Below, piece after piece: positions 39,747 through 57,305 of a stretch of DNA of 64,000 bases. The DNA lies in contig OY970295.1 of NCBI GenBank assembly GCA_963716185.1, positions 15,864-79,863 of the forward strand, written 5' to 3'. Each line of letters begins with the position of its first letter. Position 1 is the first letter of the stretch. Position numbers and translations under genes: made by a program. The notes beneath the pieces are model-generated. The model worked only from the letters and a program-made list of their open reading frames with translations. It searched no databases and was not told where the DNA came from. This DNA is from Thermodesulfovibrionales bacterium. Lineage in GTDB: Bacteria > Nitrospirota > Thermodesulfovibrionia > Thermodesulfovibrionales > SM23-35.

Positions 39747-40544
39747 TTATTTTTCTCTTTTGGGTCCGAAAGTCCATTGAAATGCAAGGTATGCTGAAAA
39801 TGTATTTTGACCTTTGAGGTCGCGGCCTGCCGAAAAAAGGATATGGTGCGCGTCGCTGAGATTGATAATCCCTCCCGCGTTAAATCCGGTTTCATCACTT
39901 TCGCCCTTGGCCTTCGGCGAAGTGTTAAAAATCTCGGAGCCGAGGGTAATGACTTTTGAAAGATCACGCTGGAGGAGCCATCCCGCAAACCAGTAGTTTT
40001 TATTGCCTTCACCCGGATGATGCCAGTATCCACCGCCCCCGTAAGTTGTCCAGGGCCCCCAACTTTTTTGTATCCATACCGGGAAAAATATATTTATGCG
40101 CCCTTCTCCCAGTCCGCGGGAGCTGTCACCTGCAGGCAGTTCAATAAGCGGGAAAGCTCCTACCTGCGGAATCCAGCCTTTGTCATCTTCATGGATAAAG
40201 CGATACTTGATACCTAATTCCATATCGCCCAAGCCGTATTGGGTTGAGCCGATATGCGGCGCCGAATAAGCCATTGGAAGGATCAAGTGAAGCTGTACAT
40301 CCCGGATTATACCATAGTTGACCTCGACATGCGGCAGAGTGCCTGATGTCCCCGCTTCCCTTTCATGTGCCCACTGTGAAGCCAAGTACACTTCCCAGTG
40401 CCTGAACTCAACGGGTTCGGGATCATCGGTGACAAAGGGCGGACCTCCCCATGCCGGACCCGCAGCGAATATAAATAAAGAGACCGCAGCCGTAAGCACT
40501 GCGGCCGCAAAAATGACAGGCCCTTTTTGAAGCCGATAACTCAT
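39747..40544 (-). CDS. putative outer-membrane beta-barrel protein
   Basis: GPPFVTDDPEPV N-terminus, GLGDMELGIKYRF, alternating beta pattern, terminal aromatic strand YLAFQWTF. Confidence 0.7.
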   Translation of the reverse strand: MSYRLQKGPVIFAAAVLTAAVSLFIFAAGPAWGGPPFVTDDPEPVEFRHWEVYLASQWAHEREAGTSGTLPHVEVNYGIIRDVQLHLILPMAYSAPHIGSTQYGLGDMELGIKYRFIHEDDKGWIPQVGAFPLIELPAGDSSRGLGEGRINIFFPVWIQKSWGPWTTYGGGGYWHHPGEGNKNYWFAGWLLQRDLSKVITLGSEIFNTSPKAKGESDETGFNAGGIINLSDAHHILFSAGRDLKGQNTFSAYLAFQWTFGPKREK

Positions 40545-40649
40545 TCTATTAAAGGATATCAAGGACTGTGTTACTGTCAAGCGTATGAGCGTATGATATC
40601 TCTTTTCTGCTATCATCTAAGGGAAGACAAAATTAGTCGTGGAGGTATG

Positions 40650-43893: not shown

Positions 43894-46578
43894 TTATGAT
43901 AGATAGTTACCCCCTCTTCTCCTCCTGAACCACTTCTCAGCCTCGACAGCAAAAAAAACAATTGAAGATAACCCCAATGCAATGAATAGTTCGCATAAGG
44001 ACAGGGGCTTCGTTTTGAACACCGGGTTTAAAAAGGGTACATATACCGCAGCCATCTGAAAAGCCAAACTTATTGTTACCGCACCTAAAAGGGGTTTGTT
44101 GGATAATAGTCCGATCTTGAACAACGACTCCCCTTCCGACCTCACCGCAAAGGCATTTCCGAATTGCGACAGACAAAGAACAGTGAACACCATTGTCTGC
44201 CAGTGGCCGTTGAAGACCCGGATCGACAACGCCTGTGTGAAAATAGTAATTCCGGCCATGAGCAGGCCGACCCATAAACAATAGAATCCCAGGCCGTCGG
44301 CCAATACGCCCTCTTTCGGATGCCTCGGCGGCCTGACCATCACATCTCTTTCTTCAGGTTCAACGGAAAGTGCAAGAGCGGGAAGCCCATCGGTCATCAG
44401 GTTTATCCATAGAATATGGATCGGCAGGAGGGGAATCGGCATGCCGAAAAAAGGCGCAAGGAACAGCGTCCACACTTCCCCGGAATTCGATGAGAGGAGA
44501 TATTTTATTATTTTTCTCAGATTGTCGTATATCTTCCTGCCCTCTCTGACCGCCTTCACGATTGTCGCAAAATTGTCATCGATGAGGATCATATCGGATG
44601 TCTCTTTTGCAACATCGGCGCCAGTTATTCCCATGGCAATACCAATGTCCGCCTTTTTTAAAGCGGGTGCGTCATTCACACCGTCTCCCGTCATAGCAAC
44701 GAACTGGCCTCTGTCCTGAAGCGCCTTGATTATCTTTAACTTTTGCTCCGGTGCGACTCTGGCGTAGACCCTTACATATTCCACCTTTTTTTCAAACTCC
44801 GCCATCGGAAGTTCGGAAAGCTCTTTCCCTGTAATGACTTCTCCCGACTCTCCGTAAAGAATGCCGATCCTTTTTGCTACTGTTTTTGCCGTGACCGGAT
44901 GGTCGCCTGTTATCATGACAGGCTTTATGCCTGCGGACTTGCAGATTTCCACAGCCTCCTTGACCTCTTCACGCGGCGGGTCCGCAAGGCCGACAAAACC
45001 CAGGAAAGTAAGTCCCTTTTCCACCGAGCCGGAAGTAATTTCATCCGGAAGGTGATCCCATCTTCTGAATCCTATGGCGATAACTCTGAGTCCGTCGGCG
45101 GCCATTCTATCGTTCACAATCTTGATCTCTTCCTTGTTAATTTTCTTCGGACCGTACGTTGTCAGAATATCGACAGATCTTTCCAGGATGACCTCGATCG
45201 CTCCTTTTGTGAAAGAGACGAAATTGGGCAACAAATCATCCCCCCATCCCCCCTTTGGCAAGGGGGGGAGCTCAGGGGGGGGCCTGTGTATCGTCGTCAT
45301 GCACTTCCTTTCAGAATCGAATGGAATCTCTGCAACGCGAGGGGAATAATCTTCGAGTTCTTTTTTAGCGAAACCTTTCCCGGCGGCAGCGTTATACAAA
45401 GCTATCTCCGTAGGGTCCCCAAGAACTTTGCCGTCTTTGTCGACTGCCGCGTCATTATTCAAAGCAAGAGCCGACATAAGAAATTGAATGGGGGAATTAA
45501 TGAATTTAGCAGCCACCCTATTCACCCATTTTTCACCCTCTATTTCGTCATGGACGTAGACCTCCTCAACAGTCATCCGGTTCAGCGTCATCGTGCCTGT
45601 TTTGTCGGAGCAGATAAACGTCACAGAGCCGAGAGTTTCCACTGCAGGAAGCTTTCTTATCAGAACGTTCTGTTTCACCATCTTTCTTGCACTGATGGCA
45701 AGCGAAATCGTCACAACCGCAGGAAGGGCCTCTGGTATAGCGGCAACAGCAAGGGAGATGGCTGTGAGCAGCATGAGCAAGGGCTGCTCTCCTCTTATAA
45801 GGCCGGCGCCAAGGATTACAGCACATATGACGATTATCCCTGCAGAAAGTTTCTTACCGAAATCTTCGAGTCTTTTTTGAAGCGGGGTCTTTACCTTTTC
45901 TTCCCCTTGAAGCATTGATGCGATCTTTCCCAGCTCCGTTTTCATCCCCGTGGCGGTAACAATGCCTTTGCCTCTGCCGCTGGATACCACGGTGCTCTTG
46001 TACGCCATATTCTTTCTATCGCCTATCGGCAGCATTTCATCCTGAAGCAAGTCTGTATTTTTTTCTACGGGTATGGATTCTCCTGTGAGAGCCGCCTCTT
46101 CGATCTTCAGGCCGGCCGCCTCGAATAATCTCATATCTGCGGGTACAACCTTGCCCGTCTCAAGTGAAACTATATCTCCGGGAACGACCTCGTATGCAAT
46201 TATGTTTTCGGGGTTCCCGTCTCTTATGACAGTTGCCGTAAGAGCTGCCATCCTCTTTAAAACCGCCATGGCCTTTCCCGCCCTGTATTCCTGAATGAAC
46301 CCGATGACCGCGTTAAGTATTACTATCGCTATAATGGCCGCAGTGTCGGACTTCTCACCGAGAACACCTGATATGATGGCGGCTGCGATAAGGACAAGGA
46401 TCATGAAGTCCCTGAACTGCCCGAGAAACATCACGAAGGGGGTCGTTTTCTTTTTTTCTTCGAGTACATTCGCGCCGTGTGTCCGGAGCCTTTCTCCGGC
46501 CTCGGCAGCGGAAAGACCATTTCTTGAAGAACGGAGTTCCTCAAGAATATCTTCTATGTCTTTTTGATGCCAGTCCAT
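43894..46578 (-). CDS. P-type cation ATPase, Ca2+ (P2A)-like
   Basis: TGES, AIPEAL, CSDKTGT, GDGVNDAPAL, WINLMTDGLP. Confidence 0.95.
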   Translation of the reverse strand: MDWHQKDIEDILEELRSSRNGLSAAEAGERLRTHGANVLEEKKKTTPFVMFLGQFRDFMILVLIAAAIISGVLGEKSDTAAIIAIVILNAVIGFIQEYRAGKAMAVLKRMAALTATVIRDGNPENIIAYEVVPGDIVSLETGKVVPADMRLFEAAGLKIEEAALTGESIPVEKNTDLLQDEMLPIGDRKNMAYKSTVVSSGRGKGIVTATGMKTELGKIASMLQGEEKVKTPLQKRLEDFGKKLSAGIIVICAVILGAGLIRGEQPLLMLLTAISLAVAAIPEALPAVVTISLAISARKMVKQNVLIRKLPAVETLGSVTFICSDKTGTMTLNRMTVEEVYVHDEIEGEKWVNRVAAKFINSPIQFLMSALALNNDAAVDKDGKVLGDPTEIALYNAAAGKGFAKKELEDYSPRVAEIPFDSERKCMTTIHRPPPELPPLPKGGWGDDLLPNFVSFTKGAIEVILERSVDILTTYGPKKINKEEIKIVNDRMAADGLRVIAIGFRRWDHLPDEITSGSVEKGLTFLGFVGLADPPREEVKEAVEICKSAGIKPVMITGDHPVTAKTVAKRIGILYGESGEVITGKELSELPMAEFEKKVEYVRVYARVAPEQKLKIIKALQDRGQFVAMTGDGVNDAPALKKADIGIAMGITGADVAKETSDMILIDDNFATIVKAVREGRKIYDNLRKIIKYLLSSNSGEVWTLFLAPFFGMPIPLLPIHILWINLMTDGLPALALSVEPEERDVMVRPPRHPKEGVLADGLGFYCLWVGLLMAGITIFTQALSIRVFNGHWQTMVFTVLCLSQFGNAFAVRSEGESLFKIGLLSNKPLLGAVTISLAFQMAAVYVPFLNPVFKTKPLSLCELFIALGLSSIVFFAVEAEKWFRRRRGGNYLS

Positions 46579-46869
46579 GATCAAGTTTGCGTTCCCCTCC
46601 TCAAAAACGTCCCATGGAGAGCTTTGTATCAACCACTAGTAGGAATTATAGCGGCTGCGCAGGTCAATAGGAATAGCAGCAGAATAACTTGCAGAGATGC
46701 GGCACTTATCACTAAGATAATTTCCGTCGTACTGCCCGACTGCGTCGTTTACAGCACACCGCAGGTATTTTTTCAAGCGCTTAAACTTTAAGTTGACACT
46801 GTTACATTAAACAACATAAATTATATAAGGGTTTTTGTAAAAACTTGTTTCTGTCCCGATAGATAAACT

Positions 46870-48522
46870 ATGTTAAACAAGAAATTTGAGAGACTGATCA
46901 AGAATAAAATTATAACTGAAGACGCATTAAATGAAAGCATGCAAGAATCGGTTGCTTCCGGTAAATGCCTCGAAGAATTACTGATAGGCAAAGGCGTACC
47001 CAAGCATCAGATATTGTTCTGCCTCACCGAATACTATGGATATCCGTTTGCGGAGTTCGATGAGAATATTAAGATTAAGGCGCCCCCGGATATTATACAA
47101 AAGCTGGATCTCGAAAGGCTTAAAAAAGCCCTGTGGTTTCCCCTTTCGGCCGGACAGAATAAAGCAGAGGTGATCGCATACGACCCCGCTTCGCCTTCGG
47201 TTATAGAAGATATAAAAGATACCGTGGCCGCCGAAAAGATAGAATTTCAGGTTGCCCTGCCCTCCGATATCGTCAGGATAATCGAGAACAATCAGGATAT
47301 TAACCCTCATTTCCCGCCTTCTTCGGGAAGGACACAGCTTGCAAAGGTAAGGACGTTTTTAGCTTACAGGAGATCTCTGCTTGCCAGCTACAGGACATTG
47401 TTGTCAAAGGGCAGGACGGGACTTGCCTTTCTTCGCACCGGGCTTTCTCTTATAACAATAGCCCTCATGCTTTTCAAGATTTTTGGATTTGGATATTGGA
47501 CTATTATTGATTTGATGATTTTGGCAACAGGAATTGTAATGACTATAGACGGTCTTACCTGGTATATCCCGGCAAGGAAGATCGGCAGAAAGAAGCTCTT
47601 TAAAGTCAGCACTGTACCAACAGGCGTAACCTCGGTGCTTGAAGTCGTGAATCCCGAAGGCAAATTCTTTTTTAGGCGAACCGGCCCTGTTCCCGGAGCG
47701 GATATATTGCGCGGCAACTGGAGAGGTCTCTCACCGGTGATGCGAAGGAGGTTCCTTGCAAACGACAGGACCGATTTTGCAGAGGAAAGGACACTTCTTT
47801 CATTTTACAGGACTTTAATGGCCAAGGCACGCACGGGTCTTGCCATTACCCGTACAGGAATCGGATTTATCGGTCTGGGGATTGCTTTGTTGAGGCATTT
47901 TCACAGGGGCTCATGGGATGTATTCGGTTATGCCCTTATGGTTATCGGCGGCACCATGGTGCTTGAGGGCTTGTACTGGTATTTCCCTGGAAGGCGTGCA
48001 GGCAAAGAAAGCTTTGATTCAGTTAAAGCGGCAGGGGAGAAAACGACTATCTGGGATCTCGTATTCCCGCCTGTGCATAAAAGACCCGTCAGAGAAAATT
48101 CCCTCGCCGGCCCTTTGCCGGTTAAGGCGAGCCATTCTCCGGGAATCTGGGGAACAACGGGGCTTGCCCTTGAAAGGACAGTGCTCGCGGAAAGAAGGAA
48201 TGTTATGGCGAGGCTCCGCACTATTATGGCCCGATCGAGGACAGGACTGGGCTTTGTCAGGACCGGAATGAATTTCAGCGCAGTAGGCACCGGCCTTCTT
48301 GTATCTTTCGGCACGCGAAATATTGTTTGGACTATAGTAGAGGTCATCATATTACTGACCGGCCTGGTGCTTATAGCTGACGGATTGTACTGGCACATAC
48401 CGGCGGAAAAAATAAGACGGCAATTCCCTTACTGTTTCGGCGATATGGAGATTGCGATCCCCGACTACGGCAAGCCCGTCCGCTTTTGGGGAAAGGCCAT
48501 TTTCAATCATGATAACGAATAA
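46870..48522 (+). CDS. membrane protein: GspE/PilB N-terminal (MshEN-like) domain plus three extended DUF202-like repeats
   Basis: N-terminal LEELLIGKG..LTEYYGYPF..WFPL..DP; three (RTxLAxx)n-RTG-TM-TM-DGLxW units. Confidence 0.7.
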   Translation: MLNKKFERLIKNKIITEDALNESMQESVASGKCLEELLIGKGVPKHQILFCLTEYYGYPFAEFDENIKIKAPPDIIQKLDLERLKKALWFPLSAGQNKAEVIAYDPASPSVIEDIKDTVAAEKIEFQVALPSDIVRIIENNQDINPHFPPSSGRTQLAKVRTFLAYRRSLLASYRTLLSKGRTGLAFLRTGLSLITIALMLFKIFGFGYWTIIDLMILATGIVMTIDGLTWYIPARKIGRKKLFKVSTVPTGVTSVLEVVNPEGKFFFRRTGPVPGADILRGNWRGLSPVMRRRFLANDRTDFAEERTLLSFYRTLMAKARTGLAITRTGIGFIGLGIALLRHFHRGSWDVFGYALMVIGGTMVLEGLYWYFPGRRAGKESFDSVKAAGEKTTIWDLVFPPVHKRPVRENSLAGPLPVKASHSPGIWGTTGLALERTVLAERRNVMARLRTIMARSRTGLGFVRTGMNFSAVGTGLLVSFGTRNIVWTIVEVIILLTGLVLIADGLYWHIPAEKIRRQFPYCFGDMEIAIPDYGKPVRFWGKAIFNHDNE

Positions 48523-49732
48523 TAAGGTTTTTATAGAAAAGAGAGTTGAGAGATTTTCTGCTTTGATAGAGCATGGAAGAATTACATGGGAGGCCATTCT
48601 TGCAGCCGAGGAAGCCGCATTTGCACGCGGCGTTGAACCTGAAAAAATACTCATAGAGGAACGGGGCATTTCCCGCTGCGCTTTACTTAGGATAGTTTCA
48701 GAATATTATAACCTTGCCTTTATTGAATACGATGAAAGGCTGCCTGTGCCCCCGGAACTTTTATATGGTCTTGATGCAAAAATACTTTCAGAGAGCAAGT
48801 GGTTTCCTGTCATTAAAGACGGCAATGCAGCCGTCATAGCCGTCAACAATCCGGCGGATGTCGCGATTTTGGATGAAGTGAAAACCTTCATCAAAGCGAG
48901 CGGGTACGAGTTCCGGGTGGCCCTCGGAGATGATATTCAGTGGTTTATCCAGGACTTCCTTAATGAAAAACCCGGGTATCTCATAGGAACTCAACGGACC
49001 GGCCTTGCCTTCTGGCGCAACATATTGGCTCAGTGGAGGACAAGGCTTTCGTGTTATAGAACAGACCTTGCAAAGGCAAGAACAAGTCTTTCTTTTCTGC
49101 GATGGGGGCTGGGCCTGACTGCTCTCTCCGATACGCTTATGCACACACATAAGTATGGTGAGATTTTTTATTTTTACTGGGCAATGATTGCAGCGGGCAT
49201 TTCTCTTTCCGTCATGGGATTATTAGGATACCTTAAGATAAGGGAGACAAGGATAAACCCTCCGGGAGTTCAAACGCTTGTAGAGGTCACATCTGCAACA
49301 TTACAATTCCTCGAAGATTACCATTTCATTGAAGGTACATGTAAAATTACGCCTCAAAAGAAGACGATGCTTGCCCGTTTAGCCGATTTTCTTGAATGCT
49401 ACTCCACTATTCTTTACCCATTTCGATCATATAAGGAACGCATCCATCTTGCGCGCGAAAGAAATGTCCTTGCAGCACAGCGTACAGTGGCTTCCTGCTA
49501 TCGTACAATTGCCGCACGCGCAAGGACGGGCCTTTCATTTTTTCGTACAGGCGTTGCATTATCAAGCCTTGGATTCGGTCTTTTAAAATATTTCGGATTC
49601 AGCCTGGCAACAACCTTTGACATGTTTCTTATCTTGGTCGGATTACTGATGATCTATGATGGCATCATGTGGTACTGGCCTGTAAGAAATGAACAGGCCG
49701 AGACCCCGAGATGCAACCTTCCGGAGTGGTAA
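48509..49732 (+). CDS. paralogous membrane protein: MshEN-like domain plus two extended DUF202-like repeats
   Basis: ATG 48509 overlaps the end of the upstream gene; same N-domain (SEYYNLAF..KWFPV..NNP) and two Arg-heptad/2-TM units. Confidence 0.7.
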   Translation: MITNNKVFIEKRVERFSALIEHGRITWEAILAAEEAAFARGVEPEKILIEERGISRCALLRIVSEYYNLAFIEYDERLPVPPELLYGLDAKILSESKWFPVIKDGNAAVIAVNNPADVAILDEVKTFIKASGYEFRVALGDDIQWFIQDFLNEKPGYLIGTQRTGLAFWRNILAQWRTRLSCYRTDLAKARTSLSFLRWGLGLTALSDTLMHTHKYGEIFYFYWAMIAAGISLSVMGLLGYLKIRETRINPPGVQTLVEVTSATLQFLEDYHFIEGTCKITPQKKTMLARLADFLECYSTILYPFRSYKERIHLARERNVLAAQRTVASCYRTIAARARTGLSFFRTGVALSSLGFGLLKYFGFSLATTFDMFLILVGLLMIYDGIMWYWPVRNEQAETPRCNLPEW

Positions 49733-49738
49733 GATCGA

Positions 49739-51133
49739 GTGAAAATAGAACGTAAGATTACGCTTTCCTATATCTTTAATATTGCTTTTATAGTCCTGAT
49801 TGGCATTTTCTCATTAAATAATATGAACCTTGTCCTTACGAAGCTCAAATTTGTGGAAATCGCGGATGACTTGAATGCCTCTTTCCTCGAAATGAGAATT
49901 TCAGAAAAAAACTTTTTCCTTTATAAAGACGTGACGGCCCTCGATGAGATCGACAACAAGGTAAAAAACACCCTGGAATCCATCGAGTCTGCTAAAGACA
50001 ACATCACCCGTGCCATCGGCGAGGAAAACCTCGGACGGCTGAAAACATATTTAAAAGGTTACGCTAAAGCTGTGGAAGAGGTCAGAAGTCATGGTGTAAG
50101 CGATACCGAATCGGAGATGGAACTCAGGGCCAAAGGCAAGGAATTAAGGGAATTTTCTCAAACCATTACCGAGCTTGAAAGAAAAAACGTTAATGCTATA
50201 ATTTTAAAATCGAAGGAGATTCTCTTTGTTTCTTTCCTGGTAATACTTTTATTGTCCGTTTTCGGCGGGCATTTTATCTCCCAGAAAATAGTGGAGTCTA
50301 TGAGGGAAATAGAGAGGCTGGCTTTGTCCATATCAAAGGGGACCTTCGAAAAACTTGATACTATTAAATCAGATAATGATGAATGCGCTTCCGTAATCAG
50401 GGCCATGAATATGATGTCTGATGAACTCAAGAACCGCGAAGACGAAATAATCCAGTCAAAGAAGCTTGCATCGCTGGGTATTCTAACCGCAGGCGTGGCT
50501 CATGAACTGAGGAACCCTCTGAACAATATCTCGATGGTGGCCCAGAACTTTGTTGAGATGCATGATTCCCTGAGCAGGGACCAGAGGATTGAGCTTATGG
50601 CCAGGGTTGAAGAGGAGACAAAAAGGATTGAAGAGATTGTGAAAAACCTTCTCGATTTTGCAAAACCGAAGGTGGCCAATCTAAAGGAGGCGGATATAAA
50701 CGGCACTATAAGCAAAGCTGTAAAACTGATGCAGAACACCCTGGATATTTCCAATATCGAGTTGAACTTGTCCCTTGATTCTTCGATCCCTCATGTCTTT
50801 ATCGATAAATCGCAGATGCAGCAGGTGCTGGTTAACCTGATACTTAATGCCGTCCAAGCCATGTCGCCCGGCGGAAAACTGTCCATAAAAACACAGGCGG
50901 GCGCTGAAGATTCTGTTACAATTGAGGTTACGGATACCGGCAAGGGAATCCCGCACGAATTTTTACCATATATATTCGACCCATTTTTCAGTACGAAAGG
51001 GGTGGAAGGAACGGGACTCGGCATGTCGATAAGTTACGCTATTATAAGAAACCATAAAGGAAACATCAAGGTCGAAAGCACGGTGAATGCAGGTACTACG
51101 TTCACAATAGATCTGCCCGTATACAAAAAATAG
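49739..51133 (+). CDS. NtrB-type sensor histidine kinase (periplasmic helical sensor, HAMP)
   Basis: AGVAHELRNPL, NAVQAM, FDPFFSTK, GTGLG. Confidence 0.93.
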   Translation: MKIERKITLSYIFNIAFIVLIGIFSLNNMNLVLTKLKFVEIADDLNASFLEMRISEKNFFLYKDVTALDEIDNKVKNTLESIESAKDNITRAIGEENLGRLKTYLKGYAKAVEEVRSHGVSDTESEMELRAKGKELREFSQTITELERKNVNAIILKSKEILFVSFLVILLLSVFGGHFISQKIVESMREIERLALSISKGTFEKLDTIKSDNDECASVIRAMNMMSDELKNREDEIIQSKKLASLGILTAGVAHELRNPLNNISMVAQNFVEMHDSLSRDQRIELMARVEEETKRIEEIVKNLLDFAKPKVANLKEADINGTISKAVKLMQNTLDISNIELNLSLDSSIPHVFIDKSQMQQVLVNLILNAVQAMSPGGKLSIKTQAGAEDSVTIEVTDTGKGIPHEFLPYIFDPFFSTKGVEGTGLGMSISYAIIRNHKGNIKVESTVNAGTTFTIDLPVYKK

Positions 51134-51143
51134 GAGGCGAAAT

Positions 51144-51512
51144 ATGGATGACTACAGGATCATGATTATTGATGATGAAAAGATTGTAGGTGATATGGCG
51201 AAGATGGCCCTTGAGAAAGAAGGTTACAGCGTCGAGACGTTTGTAAATGCTGAACCCGCACTGGATAGATTAAGGACCGAGAGATTTGACGTAGTGGTTA
51301 CCGACTTCAAAATGAAGGGGATAGACGGCATGGAAGTGCTCAGGAGGGTGAAAGGTCTTTATCCCGAAACCAAGGTCATAATGATTACGGCCTTTGCCAA
51401 TCTCGACACTGCTATTGAAGCCCTGAGGGAAGACGTGTATGACTTCTTCCCGAAGCCGGTAAAAATAAAGGAGCTGAAGGCATCCATACAGCGCGCATTG
51501 AAAAAATTATGA
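51144..51512 (+). CDS. single-domain response regulator
   Basis: IIDDE, VTDFKM, ITAFA, PKP. Confidence 0.92.
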   Translation: MDDYRIMIIDDEKIVGDMAKMALEKEGYSVETFVNAEPALDRLRTERFDVVVTDFKMKGIDGMEVLRRVKGLYPETKVIMITAFANLDTAIEALREDVYDFFPKPVKIKELKASIQRALKKL

Positions 51513-54097
51513 TGAAGAGTTCTTTTGGTTTTTTGAAATCTGTCTTCGACAGCGCCAAGAGAGCTACATACAGGCAGATTCCTTTTAATGTCCTCTTTCA
51601 GAGATTCCAGGAAGTTCTTGAAAGCAACAACAAGGCGCTTGAGATCATCACCGATATGGGAGAGAAGCTCGGAGGAGACTATCTTTTTGATATACATTAC
51701 ATAAAAAGCGCTTATTCTCAGTTATCCGCCGCCCTCTACGATTCTATTCAGAAATTTGATCTGCTCACGCGGAGGAAATATGCGCTCCTTCACGATGTAT
51801 ACAAACGTATTGATAATCAAATAAGGAATACTATATACGACCAGCCCCTGATATCCGGCAAACGGGTAGTATTTTATGAAGATATTACGTGGGACATGCG
51901 CCGGGATGTCGGCGGCAAAAATGCCGGGCTCTCCGATCTGAAAAATATTTTGAAGCTCAATGTACCTCACGGATTCGCCATAACAACATACGCATTTGAC
52001 GAATTCGTGCAGCACAACAGGCTGAACGAAAAAATAGACGGGTTGAGGAAAGACGCCGAATTTGCCGAAACAAAACTGGATGAGCTGCGCGGCCTGATCA
52101 TTGAAGCGGAAATACCGCAGGACCTGGACAGCGACATTAATATGGCCCTGCATACAATAAGGTCCCGGTGCGGTGGAAATTGTTCCCTTGCCGTAAGGAG
52201 CAGCGCCGAGGAAGAAGACGGCGAAATATCTTTTGCCGGACAGTTTGATACCATACTCAACGTGCCTTTGAAAGCGGAGACGGTCAAGGACGCTTACAAA
52301 AAGGTGGTTGCAAGCCTTTTTTCGACTCACGCAATAACATATCAAAAGAGTTTTGGATATAACATCGGGAAATTGAAAATGGCTGTGGGCTGTATGGCAA
52401 TGGTTGACACAATAGCCAGCGGTGTTGTCTATTCTGCGAACCCGGACGGAGACAATGAGACGATGCTGATAAATTCGGTCTGGGGGCTCGGGAGGACCGT
52501 CGTAGAAGGCCGGGCTGATGCCGACCTTTATATCGTGGGAAAAGATATCAGCCCGGAATTGATCTCCGAAAGGCCCGGCGGCAAGGAATTAATGACGGTC
52601 AATGCCGCAGACGGCGGAACGGTTATTGTTAATACCCCGGATATATTGAGAGGAAAATCTTCCCTGTCCCGGGACCAGATAAAAGAACTTGCCACGCAAG
52701 CTCTCTTTATCGAGAAATACTTCAGGAAGCCCCAGGACATTGAATGGGCGATCGATAAAAACGGGAAAATATTTATTCTGCAGTCAAGACAGCTCAGGAC
52801 CGGGGAGAGTAAAAAGGATTCTGTTTCCCGGGGCTGGTCCGTTGATTCAACAGCAGTGCTCATAAAGGGGAAAGGCATTGTCGTGCAGAAAGGCGTCGGC
52901 GCGGGCAGGGTCTTTATTGCAAATAATATCGACGAACTGGGCCATTTCCCAAGGGGAGCGGTACTCGTTGCAAAACATGACTCTTCCAACTTCGTACGGC
53001 TTATGCCTTATGTATCGGCTATTATAACCGATACCGGTACTCCCACCAGCCATATGGCGTCCCTCTGCAGGGAATTCAGGATCCCGGCAATCGTGAATAC
53101 AGGGGATGCAACAAGGGTTCTCAGGCACGGTCAGGAAATCACCGTAGATGCATATGATGAAAACAATATCGTCTATGACGGAATTATCAAAGAACTTATC
53201 GAATATGCTTATTCGGATTCCCCGGATATGGAATCCCTATATGAATACCGCAAGAAAAGGTATGTCCTGAGGTATATTTCGCCTCTCAATCTCGTCGAAC
53301 CGTTAATGGATAATTTCACCCCCGGTGGGTGTAAGACCATACATGATATACTCAGGTTCATTCATGAAAAATCGATCACGGAGATCATCGACAGCGCCGG
53401 ATACGGAATGAATTTAAAAGACCGTATTGCCGTTAAACTGGAACTTCCCATCCCTGCGGACATTATAGTAATTGATATGGGGGGCGGCCTGGAACTCACG
53501 GACAACAGTTCAAGAAAACATATCGGGAAGAAAGATACGGTTAAGGTTGAACAGATAACGTCCATCCCGTTGAAGGCCGTTATCAAAGGAATGCTGTATC
53601 CCGGCGCCTGGCATTCTGAAACCGTCCCGCTGAAAATGAATGACCTGATCACAAGTATGACAAGAATGCCGGACATAATCTCTGAAAGCAGGGCTAATGT
53701 CTTTCACAACGTGGCTGTCGCTTCGAAGGAGTACGTAAACCTTAACATGAAATTCGGGTATCACTTCAATGTCCTGGATTGCTACTGTAGTGAGAACGCA
53801 AGGAATAACCATATCTATTTCCGTTTTGCAGGCGGCGCAACAGATATTTTGAAGCGTTCACGAAGGGTACAGCTTATCGCGATTGTTTTAAAAAAATACG
53901 GCTTCGGCGTAATGACAAAGGGGGACCTCCTTATCGGGAGGCTCGCAAATATGAAACAGGATGAGATAGAAGACATCCTCGACCGGCTGGGTAGGTTGAT
54001 TGCCTACATAAGGAAGCTGGACGCCCTTCTCCGTGACGACAGCGCCGTTGAACGATACGCAGAGAGATTTATGGAAGGGAATTACGAATTGAAATAG
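51509..54097 (+). CDS. PEP-synthase/PPDK-like protein (ATP-grasp plus phospho-His domain, non-canonical C-terminus)
   Basis: VGGKNAGL, AVRSSA..ED..SFAGQF, PQDIEWA, TSHMASLCRE; no recognisable pyruvate-binding barrel. Confidence 0.88.
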   Translation: MMKSSFGFLKSVFDSAKRATYRQIPFNVLFQRFQEVLESNNKALEIITDMGEKLGGDYLFDIHYIKSAYSQLSAALYDSIQKFDLLTRRKYALLHDVYKRIDNQIRNTIYDQPLISGKRVVFYEDITWDMRRDVGGKNAGLSDLKNILKLNVPHGFAITTYAFDEFVQHNRLNEKIDGLRKDAEFAETKLDELRGLIIEAEIPQDLDSDINMALHTIRSRCGGNCSLAVRSSAEEEDGEISFAGQFDTILNVPLKAETVKDAYKKVVASLFSTHAITYQKSFGYNIGKLKMAVGCMAMVDTIASGVVYSANPDGDNETMLINSVWGLGRTVVEGRADADLYIVGKDISPELISERPGGKELMTVNAADGGTVIVNTPDILRGKSSLSRDQIKELATQALFIEKYFRKPQDIEWAIDKNGKIFILQSRQLRTGESKKDSVSRGWSVDSTAVLIKGKGIVVQKGVGAGRVFIANNIDELGHFPRGAVLVAKHDSSNFVRLMPYVSAIITDTGTPTSHMASLCREFRIPAIVNTGDATRVLRHGQEITVDAYDENNIVYDGIIKELIEYAYSDSPDMESLYEYRKKRYVLRYISPLNLVEPLMDNFTPGGCKTIHDILRFIHEKSITEIIDSAGYGMNLKDRIAVKLELPIPADIIVIDMGGGLELTDNSSRKHIGKKDTVKVEQITSIPLKAVIKGMLYPGAWHSETVPLKMNDLITSMTRMPDIISESRANVFHNVAVASKEYVNLNMKFGYHFNVLDCYCSENARNNHIYFRFAGGATDILKRSRRVQLIAIVLKKYGFGVMTKGDLLIGRLANMKQDEIEDILDRLGRLIAYIRKLDALLRDDSAVERYAERFMEGNYELK

Positions 54098-55022: not shown

Positions 55023-55299
55023 TATTGCCTCCTCCATAAAAATTTTCTTTTAAAAAATCGAGGTCATTTATGTACACCGGTTACATTATCGGGTACTCTG
55101 AATCTTCATCTCGGATTTTCCGTAATTACCCTCTTTGGTACGGACAACGGATCTTGAGTTCAAAACCGTTTGTTAGCGATCATTGATATAGTAGGAATAG
55201 CAATTAAGGTGCCAGATGATAAGTCTTTGATTATTAATGGAGATATGCGCAATTTCCCGAACGTCTTAATGCATTTCGCCTTTTTCGTGTGGCAAAATA

Positions 55300-55746
55300 C
55301 CACGGTGAGAGGAAAAAGCTTCCGCGGGTCTCACGTCCGACGGAACCGCCGCTGCCGATACTCATGGCAGAGGCAAAAGATTTAACTGCAGCGACGACGG
55401 GCCTGATAATTCCCTTATTGTAGTAAATAGCATCCATAACCTCCGGCACTCTATGCCCTTTCGCCTCCTGTGCAAAGTTATCGATGAGAAAAGCCACAAC
55501 AATAGAACCGACAACAGGCACAAAGATGACAAGAGGGCCCCATGGGCCGGCAGGCGTATGACTGTTGGCATCGTAAACAAACGATATCTTGCCGAGAAAC
55601 AACACATTATGAAAGAAACCGATCATGATCCGGAAGACGACCGCGCCCAGGCCCGATACTACGCCGACCAAAAGGGACAGCAGCGCAAAACCAAACAGCC
55701 CTAAAGATCCTGGTCGCGCAGTCTCTTTTTCGTTTGGATTCAGCAT
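55300..55746 (-). pseudogene. truncated ClC chloride channel N-terminus
   Basis: AKGHRVPEVM, GSGGSVGRE, then loss of homology. Confidence 0.8.
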
Positions 55747-55937: not shown

Positions 55938-57305
55938 TCAAAACATAAGCCAGACAAGGAGAAAAAGCGTATTATTATCCGAGGCGTTCCTGCCGGACCC
56001 GTCATAGTCTGAATGAGAGCCGTTGAATTTGTTATAAATTGTGTATTGAAGCGAAACCTTGCCTGTTTTCCATGGCAAATAGCCCGCCTCCAGTATAAAA
56101 CCGTCGCTGTCCGGTTTTCCACTTCTGCTCCCATCAAGAGGGTTGGGGGAATATAGCACATTATCTTTATCTCCTGTTGTGGAGAAATACCCCACCGTTC
56201 CGCCGATATCACCAAAATGACCCCTGTAATAATAGTTTGCATTCACTCTGAAAGTATTCAGGCTGTCGGACTTGTTGGCTGTATTTCCGAGGGCAAAACT
56301 GGCATTCCAGTCCTGGTCTTCATGAATCCAGGTTGTCTGGGCCGAAAGAAAATGATCCTTTACGATATACTGGTATTGAGCGTCAAAGGCTATGTCTATG
56401 AACCGATCTGAAGGCCCGCTGCTATTACCTTCCGGAAAAATATTCGCCGCCATTCCGTAAGTGCCAATAGATAAGGAGTGTTTTTTCTCCCATTGGCGCT
56501 GAAGCACCAAACGCCAGTAAGGGGCGGCGGCATCGACCACCATGTCCGTATGCGTACCCACACCCAAGGGTCTCGTAATCCCATTGCGGGCAGTCCTGTA
56601 TACACTCGCTTCGGCATAAATCAAGTTGTTCCAGTATGCATACAAACCTATGCCGCCTACTTGCTGGCCTAATGTACCATCAATAATTGCGGCGGCAGCA
56701 GGAGTCGGAGCGATACCTGATGTTGCAGAAGGGAAACCCCATGCAGGAGTGCTGTTCCAGACATCTTGCGAGGTGGGATTATTATTTATTGTAAGGCCAT
56801 AGACAAGTTTTTTGCCAATTACCCATGTGCTGCCCGCGTAGCGAATATCCGTATTGTCCAAAAACAGCGAGTTGCTGGGACCGTCAAAGGTACCTTGTAT
56901 AAAAGCTCCAACATTGTAAAAAATACGTCCTCCGTAAAACAGGCTCAGCTGCTGCGGAATACTAATAACATTGTTTCCCGACGAGGTGATGCGGGTTGCC
57001 CAATTGTTGTCAATGGCCCCCTGAGGTTGAGCCCTGTCAGTATGCGTATAAGATATCTGTGCCATACCCGCCACTGGCGGAGGAAACTCGTATGGTTTGT
57101 CGCTCGTGGTCATTAAATAGCCGCCGAGCTTGAAAGATCTTCCCAACGGGGTCAATTCGGGGAAGACCATATGGCAGGCATTGCATTCCATCCCCGCCTG
57201 TCTTGCAAAACTCGGCACCGCAGAGGCGTCTTTTAGAGATAGAAATATTGAAAGGATGGTGATACTCATTACGAGTAACAGATCCTTGAGGTTTGATTTG
57301 GCCAT
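55938..57305 (-). CDS. cyc2: Cyc2-like fused monoheme cytochrome-porin outer-membrane protein
   Basis: After the signal peptide: AVPSFARQAGMECNACHMVFPELTPLGRSFKLGGY; beta-barrel body ending in terminal Phe (LVWLMF). Confidence 0.85.
   Translation of the reverse strand: MAKSNLKDLLLVMSITILSIFLSLKDASAVPSFARQAGMECNACHMVFPELTPLGRSFKLGGYLMTTSDKPYEFPPPVAGMAQISYTHTDRAQPQGAIDNNWATRITSSGNNVISIPQQLSLFYGGRIFYNVGAFIQGTFDGPSNSLFLDNTDIRYAGSTWVIGKKLVYGLTINNNPTSQDVWNSTPAWGFPSATSGIAPTPAAAAIIDGTLGQQVGGIGLYAYWNNLIYAEASVYRTARNGITRPLGVGTHTDMVVDAAAPYWRLVLQRQWEKKHSLSIGTYGMAANIFPEGNSSGPSDRFIDIAFDAQYQYIVKDHFLSAQTTWIHEDQDWNASFALGNTANKSDSLNTFRVNANYYYRGHFGDIGGTVGYFSTTGDKDNVLYSPNPLDGSRSGKPDSDGFILEAGYLPWKTGKVSLQYTIYNKFNGSHSDYDGSGRNASDNNTLFLLVWLMF

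Follow-up and report, generated by a model that had tools for sequence, protein, structure and literature searches.

The closest described system to the one reported here is the eukaryotic VTC channel, whose pore is lined, in the accessible parts of its descriptions (PMC9911596; bioRxiv 10.1101/2023.01.27.525886), by the first transmembrane helices (TM1) of a 3:1:1 pentamer, five in all, with positively charged rings at K24 and R31; a lumen radius of 1.5 A at R31 is given in the part of PMC9911596 consulted. For the bacterial DUF202 proteins, searches of the literature and of the PDB found no assigned function or solved structure, and the accessible portion of PMC10299036 records no D-alanine export by Escherichia coli YidH in a transport assay. 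Here we describe two genes, A and B, in a 64,000-nucleotide stretch (the window) of a Thermodesulfovibrionales bacterium (GenBank assembly GCA_963716185.1, contig OY970295.1, positions 15,864 to 79,863 of the forward strand), which between them encode five DUF202 hairpins, each built on a long helix with a ladder of arginines. The two genes are strictly co-inherited. On balance we lean towards the prediction that their products assemble 1:1 into a pseudo-pentamer and that this is a regulated conduit, linked to a dikinase/TauE gene module, for a small anion with multiple charges. The host genome is a single contig of 3.59 Mb, 100% complete by markers, and carries dsrA. No publication on the A/B proteins was found in a literature search that had subscription journals largely outside it and supplements unread.

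Arginine-ladder units of A and B

The two genes and their parts, in window coordinates, are:

46870-48522 (+), gene A, 550 amino acids (aa): MshEN-like domain and three arginine-ladder DUF202 hairpins
46870-47313 (+), N-domain of A, aa 1-148: MshEN/GSPII fold with a degenerate cyclic di-GMP (c-di-GMP) motif
47317-47574 (+), unit A1: ladder R154-R189 (six Arg) and hairpin, predicted to pack on B2
47734-47991 (+), unit A2: ladder R293-R328 (six Arg), the ladder without confident contact to B
48142-48405 (+), unit A3: ladder R436-R464 (five Arg), first rung Thr, predicted to pack on B1
48509-49732 (+), gene B, 407 aa from the ATG at 48509: MshEN-like domain and two arginine-ladder DUF202 hairpins
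48536-48976 (+), N-domain of B, aa 10-156: MshEN-like, without a c-di-GMP motif match
48983-49246 (+), unit B1: ladder R163-R198 (six Arg), the most divergent of the five units
49427-49684 (+), unit B2: ladder R311-R346 (six Arg)

A and B are paralogues (31% identity over 401 aa). In open reading frame (ORF) coordinates A and B share 14 nt at their junction, in line with the overlap reported in a preliminary description of this DNA; the longest ORF of B opens upstream of its ATG, at a TTG at 48452. Pfam places DUF202 (PF02656) on three stretches of A (52.3 bits, E 8e-14) and two of B (30.2 bits, E 6.5e-7), both above the curated cut-off of 23.4 bits, which bears out the earlier claim of 3 + 2 homologous units. 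The ladders total 29 Arg at seven-residue spacing, close to the 30 or so first estimated, and both heptad strings quoted in the preliminary description are present in the translations. The ladder Arg are 98-100% conserved in the alignments of A and of B, each of which has 64 rows taken from 120 listed homologues, and the R, T and G columns are invariant across 145 aligned units. A repeat arising by artefact or chance was ruled out; 0.0002 six-rung runs would be expected by chance in 957 aa at the pair's own Arg frequency of 7.5%. The ladder segments hold 41 Arg and Lys against 8 Asp and Glu, so that a ring made of them would need bound anions.

AlphaFold2 models of A (mean predicted local distance difference test, pLDDT, 75; predicted TM-score, pTM, 0.67) and of B (pLDDT 76, pTM 0.56) draw every unit as a helix that runs unbroken for 48-55 residues and is joined by a short turn to a second, returning helix, and a hydropathy scan and the models both give two membrane helices per unit. 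The hairpin ends on (D/E)G(L/I)xW in four of the five units, which agrees with the description of this as the usual ending; the acid is missing in B1. The connection to VTC runs through Pfam DUF202 and through YidH. The unit aligns to the plain YidH of the host genome (hhalign probability 85%, E 6.5e-6), and this YidH has just four PDB matches, weak ones (E 0.11-0.18) that are all Vtc1 chains; the transitive alignment places rungs 4 and 5 of the ladder on Vtc1 K24 and R31. The proposed DUF202/Vtc1 homology therefore stands, on the Vtc1 side by this indirect route. Fold searches with the whole 550-residue model of A (Foldseek, VIA) returned lists full of MshEN domains and generic bundles, with VTC chains not among them, and in an atlas comparison only the family's own DUF202 cluster scored at least 0.9.

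The 3 + 2 pair and its predicted ring

Three genome scans gave 165 loci, or 129 distinct loci after collapsing; the second and third took the best 80 of 271 and the best 80 of 236 relatives and hence lean to close homologues. Intact two-gene 3 + 2 pairs make up 110 of the 129. The five-unit order is kept but split by frameshifts in eight, five are interrupted by contig ends, five are A'+A+B triplets and one (L029) is an exception taken up below. A less biased survey drew evenly on 301 Nitrospirota genomes of at least 85% completeness. A full A match was present in 44 of these, with a B-type match directly downstream every time (44/44), and none of the 301 genomes showed a full-length A or B on its own, so the conserved pairing anticipated in the preliminary description holds. 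A further 68 genomes had a match with a best E of 4e-27 or weaker, and those listed cover the MshEN region only. Counted with a profile built solely from single-unit relatives, exactly five units are present in 42 of the 44 carriers; the other two have nine (a genome with two pairs, in which only nine candidates were scored) and seven (a triplet genome). The same profile found one unit in each of two non-carriers. In the unit tree the five positions form five separate clades (support 0.71-1.0), of which those of A1 and B1 group together (0.88). In their pairwise identities A and B correlate at 0.89 (53 of 106 pairs). Clades of their own and correlated identities indicate that the positions are specialised and have long been fixed. 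No single chain with five A/B-type units occurs in the best 150 of 3084 matches.

We propose that one A and one B would form a VTC-like tube of five long helices, in the order A1-A2-A3-B1-B2, with stacked arginine rings inside. Prediction of the 1:1 complex scored 0.79 against 0.00 for the best control, a mark that 116 of 157 solved complexes and 2 of 215 mismatched pairs attain; with the alignments used here this calibration is approximate. The runs share at least 81% of contacts, and partner pLDDT is at least 69. The reported contacts, which are those between chains, set A3 on B1 and B2 on A1 and leave the A2 ladder off B, which is the pattern demanded by a closed ring in that order. The seams engage heptad offsets 0/1/4/5 of A1 and B1, and 6/0/3/4 of A3 and B2. 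Their centres fall at +77 to +85 and at -30 to -34 degrees, a separation of about 110-115 degrees where a pentagon would have 108, and the line bisecting them passes between the Arg at offset 0 and the Ala at offset 4. Treated as a helical barrel, the arrangement predicts Ala (a) and Arg (d) turned to the lumen, with the seams made of Thr (e) and Leu/Met (g). That the five helices close into a ring is, on this model, probable. An A-B interface and an arginine-lined five-helix arrangement, both put forward in the preliminary description, are thus what the model predicts, with Arg at an axial position.

Another possibility is that the number five is incidental, and that A and B build larger rings (A2B2) or separate homo-oligomers. 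The modelling covered the 1:1 complex only, five loci carry two A genes, and no A-B fusion was found (no longer homologue among proteins of 743-2120 aa), although the last is weak evidence. Against this, A and B meet at two different seams when the 1:1 model closes, with an angle between them close to that of a pentagon, orphans are absent from the 301 genomes, and the two A copies of the triplets fit alternative subunits. We regard other stoichiometries as very improbable. We note that the two A copies of the triplet loci (L074, L093, L109, L119 and L121) share 68-71% identity at the four loci compared, the second copy having an insertion in its N-domain; they are possibly alternative subunits.

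Gene neighbours, N-domains and candidate cargo

The pair lies at the head of a tight gene cluster, in which A, B and the three genes below are spaced by no more than 10 nt or overlap:

46793-46822 (+), upstream of gene A, candidate sigma-70-like promoter, a pattern only (10 of 12 matches)
49739-51133 (+), HAMP-HisKA-HATPase sensor kinase, 6 nt past B
51144-51512 (+), receiver-only response regulator
51509-54097 (+), dikinase-like protein, 862 aa: PPDK_N, PEP-utilizer swivel domain with its His, and a C-terminal domain

Sigma-70-like sites number 20 in 8 kb, compared with 11.9 +/- 3.3 in shuffles. The C-terminal 300 or so residues of the dikinase-like protein matched no named family. Outside the conserved neighbour set, a Ca-type P-type ATPase gene (43894-46632, -) diverges from gene A and is followed by an OmpR-type regulator and a kinase. 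Elsewhere in the window are a short fragment, 170 aa, of a gene for a CLC chloride channel (55234-55746, -) and two genes with signal-peptide-like starts and no Pfam match at E 0.001 (55938-57305, -, and 39747-40616, -).

Across 94 A-centred loci, many of them cut by contig ends and a few redundant, the neighbour clusters are kinase (73), dikinase-like (62), receiver (61), Alph_Pro_TM (43), TauE (42) and Usp (42). In the host genome a TauE-Alph_Pro_TM-Usp block occurs as two near-identical copies detached from the A/B operon, at about 2.032-2.039 and 3.188-3.198 Mb. The TSUP clusters of Desulfovibrio vulgaris (PMC4641369, PMC4265775) may offer a lead on this module. The close subfamily of dikinase-like proteins, delimited by a cut-off chosen post hoc (best match at least 44% identity, next group at most 40%), is present in 47 of the 301 Nitrospirota genomes, namely 41 of the 44 A/B carriers and 6 of the 257 others. 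Among these six, G127 shares the kinase-receiver-dikinase module and has a plain DUF202 gene three genes on, and G001 shares the dikinase with a plain DUF202 gene right after it; no DUF202 gene was found in the stretch covered in G074, G190 or G271, and G032 is cut by a contig end. In two genomes without A/B, the plain YidH-type DUF202 genes downstream of the same dikinase subfamily lie at L254:1488-1895 and L259:2215-2613. dsrA is present in 43 of the 44 carriers, and A/B in 43 of 163 dsrA-positive compared with 1 of 138 dsrA-negative genomes; this co-occurrence tracks lineage and serves as context only.

A third form of DUF202 protein accompanies the same module in Acidobacteriota and Gemmatimonadota. 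In the 80 of 107 loci used (L173-L252) each locus has a single such gene, with a single unit and no MshEN domain, and the ladder has 12-23 rungs (79/80). A cytidylate-kinase-like/BON gene, whose P-loop lacks the lysine, stands beside it in 80 of 80 loci, with TauE in 31, kinase in 26, dikinase-like in 24, receiver in 24 and Alph_Pro_TM in 16; near A/B, no cytidylate-kinase-like gene was found in L001-L165. The recurrence of the module with three forms of DUF202 protein suggests that the arginine tube is tied to it. Among the long-ladder relatives, P0270 (363 aa) is fused to a receiver domain and P0367 (489 aa) to a bile-acid:sodium symporter family domain.

An alternative reading is that the ring binds anions, whether phosphate or sulfur anions, without conducting them and serves as a sensor or scaffold that signals through its MshEN-like domains to the kinase, receiver and dikinase-like protein. 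The tight coupling to kinase and receiver (73 and 61 of the 94 loci) would fit, as would the receiver fusion of P0270, the hydrophobic character of the membrane part past rung 6, and the 12-23 rungs of the relatives, which exceed what a selectivity filter needs. However, the hairpin comes from a pore-forming DUF202 family and keeps the rings equivalent to K24 and R31, the 29 Arg are invariant along the entire axis, and the kinase has two membrane helices and a sensor region of its own. We consider this explanation unlikely.

The N-domains, left unnamed in the preliminary description, match MshEN/GSPII (PF05157; E 2e-7 and 4e-11), and the fold of the A N-domain resembles 5htl (Z 14.2, root-mean-square deviation 3.2, 138 residues aligned) and 2d28 (Z 13.3, 3.4, 137 aligned). 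In the part of PMC5013675 consulted, the c-di-GMP motif of MshEN consists of two 24-residue RLGxx...Q motifs. Against the model of this motif, NF053729, A scores 21 bits (cut-off 38) and B has no match; the consensus of the N-domains reads K/R-F-x where RLG stands, and the conserved Gln is missing. A role as c-di-GMP receptors was rejected, as the RLG...Q motif is not kept. Compared with the MshEN/GSPII domains of MshE, PilF, PilB and XpsE, then, the fold is the same, whereas the motif is lost and the domain is fused to membrane hairpins rather than to an ATPase; we infer a role in protein docking. The nearest relative is the MshEN domain of a GAF-MshEN-T2SSE ATPase from the same phylum (hhalign 99%, 35% identity), and the host genome has five further MshEN matches. 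Both would suit a conduit for DNA, an acidic polysaccharide or an acidic peptide, docked through these domains to type IV pilus or type II secretion machinery. Yet the neighbour clusters common to more than 6 of the 94 loci include no gene for pili, secretion or polysaccharides, the single-unit relatives without MshEN keep the same neighbours, and a five-helix lumen is narrow, to judge from the radius at R31 given for VTC in the part of PMC9911596 cited above. Transport of such polymers is the least probable reading that we considered.

Polyphosphate, the cargo named in the preliminary description, is doubtful on the evidence of gene content. PPK1, PPK2 and the VTC domain PF09359 were all not found in the complete host genome, by searches whose positive controls matched in 7, 8, 8 and 3 of 14 genomes; the PF09359 search was confined to the host. 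Among the 43 other carriers, several of which are fragmented drafts (86-100% complete), ppk1 is above cut-off in three, with one fragment besides, and ppk2 in none (3/44 and 0/44 with the host included). Because most carriers are without known polyphosphate kinases, a small anion is the likelier cargo, and a polyphosphate exporter would need another polymerase. A VTC-like polyphosphate channel supplied from a source other than PPK1, PPK2 or the VTC polymerase, such as the dikinase-like enzyme, would agree with the homology to VTC and the five-fold count, with Arg rings every seven residues, which suit a linear polyanion, and with the strong association of the dikinase-like gene with the carriers and the retention of the swivel His in the window copy. 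The scarcity of ppk genes stands against it, as does the lack of a polymerase or SPX domain in A and B, and we judge it improbable. In a related form of this idea, the dikinase-like enzyme would make a phospho-polyanion, be it polyphosphate without PPK1/PPK2 or another polymer, that is fed through the tube under two-component control. We think this quite unlikely; if true, it would be a VTC counterpart in sulfur-respiring bacteria without known polyphosphate kinases, built from different parts.

Returning to a conduit for a small anion, rungs 1-5 would make up a stalk of about 4 nm on the cytoplasmic side, where anions would be gathered, rung 6 would go into the membrane, and the hydrophobic remainder may act as a gate, by analogy with VTC. 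At its cytoplasmic mouth the tube would carry the two MshEN-like domains, as regulators that dock proteins. Given a ring, we would expect conduction with fair confidence. Any single named cargo is doubtful at best: the foremost candidate would be a phosphate-bearing product of the co-inherited dikinase-like enzyme (inorganic phosphate or an acceptor that has been phosphorylated), and second would come a sulfur oxyanion that is handled jointly with TauE.

Several points weigh against this proposal. Five of the distinct loci are the triplets, and at the exceptional locus a two-unit A stands beside a truncated B; there (L029:7953-10116) units 2 and 3 of A are fused in frame at a repeated motif and B stops inside unit 2, which may reflect misassembly or decay. 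The carrier genomes are related and hence are not independent samples, and the dikinase association depends on the post hoc cut-off. Besides its approximate calibration, the complex score may be due in part to likeness to solved VTC structures, and the inward Arg and open lumen are inferred from the A-B contact lists only. The unit profile found no VTC chain among PDB sequences, so that the direct link to Vtc1 is weak. A and B also have two membrane helices per unit where VTC has three, and the E30-R83 lock between VTC subunits is missing: in all five units the residue before rung 5, the equivalent of Vtc1 E30, is mostly Gly, Ala or Ser, and Glu is never among the three commonest. Four of the five units conserve a basic residue in their first helix and an acidic one in their second.

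Comparison with VTC and other DUF202 proteins

Among bacterial proteins, the last three rungs of A and B correspond to the signature of the YidH/DUF202 family (PF02656). YidH has one short unit, to which A and B add three upstream rungs, tandem repeats and an N-domain. The single-hairpin long-ladder proteins share the hairpin, the heptad and the neighbours of A/B and differ in having 12-23 rungs, one unit and a cytidylate-kinase-like partner. A singleton unrelated to A/B, P0319 (476 aa, on a 2-kb contig), carries five tandem DUF202 hairpins with three-rung ladders in one chain (four stretches by Pfam, five by the unit profile). It is a possible one-chain pentamer and would be independent but single support for five-fold assembly. 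The partial P0381 (271 aa) groups with it as tandem DUF202 hairpins with short three-rung ladders.

If our proposal is correct, the A/B pair sets a 3 + 2 stoichiometry genetically, and the channel that it predicts is a defined one of two proteins. Whatever its cargo, an anion conduit with a stack of six arginine rings would be of unusual design, and the pair offers a way into a widespread module of TauE, Alph_Pro_TM, Usp, kinase and dikinase-like genes in sulfur-cycling anaerobes. It also connects the eukaryotic VTC pore with a bacterial family. With the VTC channel (Vtc1 x3, Vtc3 and Vtc4; PDB 7ytj, 8i6v and 9umg) A and B share the DUF202 unit, a total of five units (as a ring, in prediction only) and a pseudo-symmetric heteromeric plan in which basic rings follow each other at seven residues on the inner helix, K24 and R31 being equivalent to rungs 4 and 5. 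VTC is assembled from five chains with two rungs and three membrane helices per unit and the E30-R83 salt bridge between subunits, and bears TTM polymerase (PF09359) and SPX domains; A and B are two chains of tandem units with six rungs, have neither the third helix, the salt bridge nor these domains, carry MshEN-like heads and belong to hosts that are mostly without known polyphosphate kinases.

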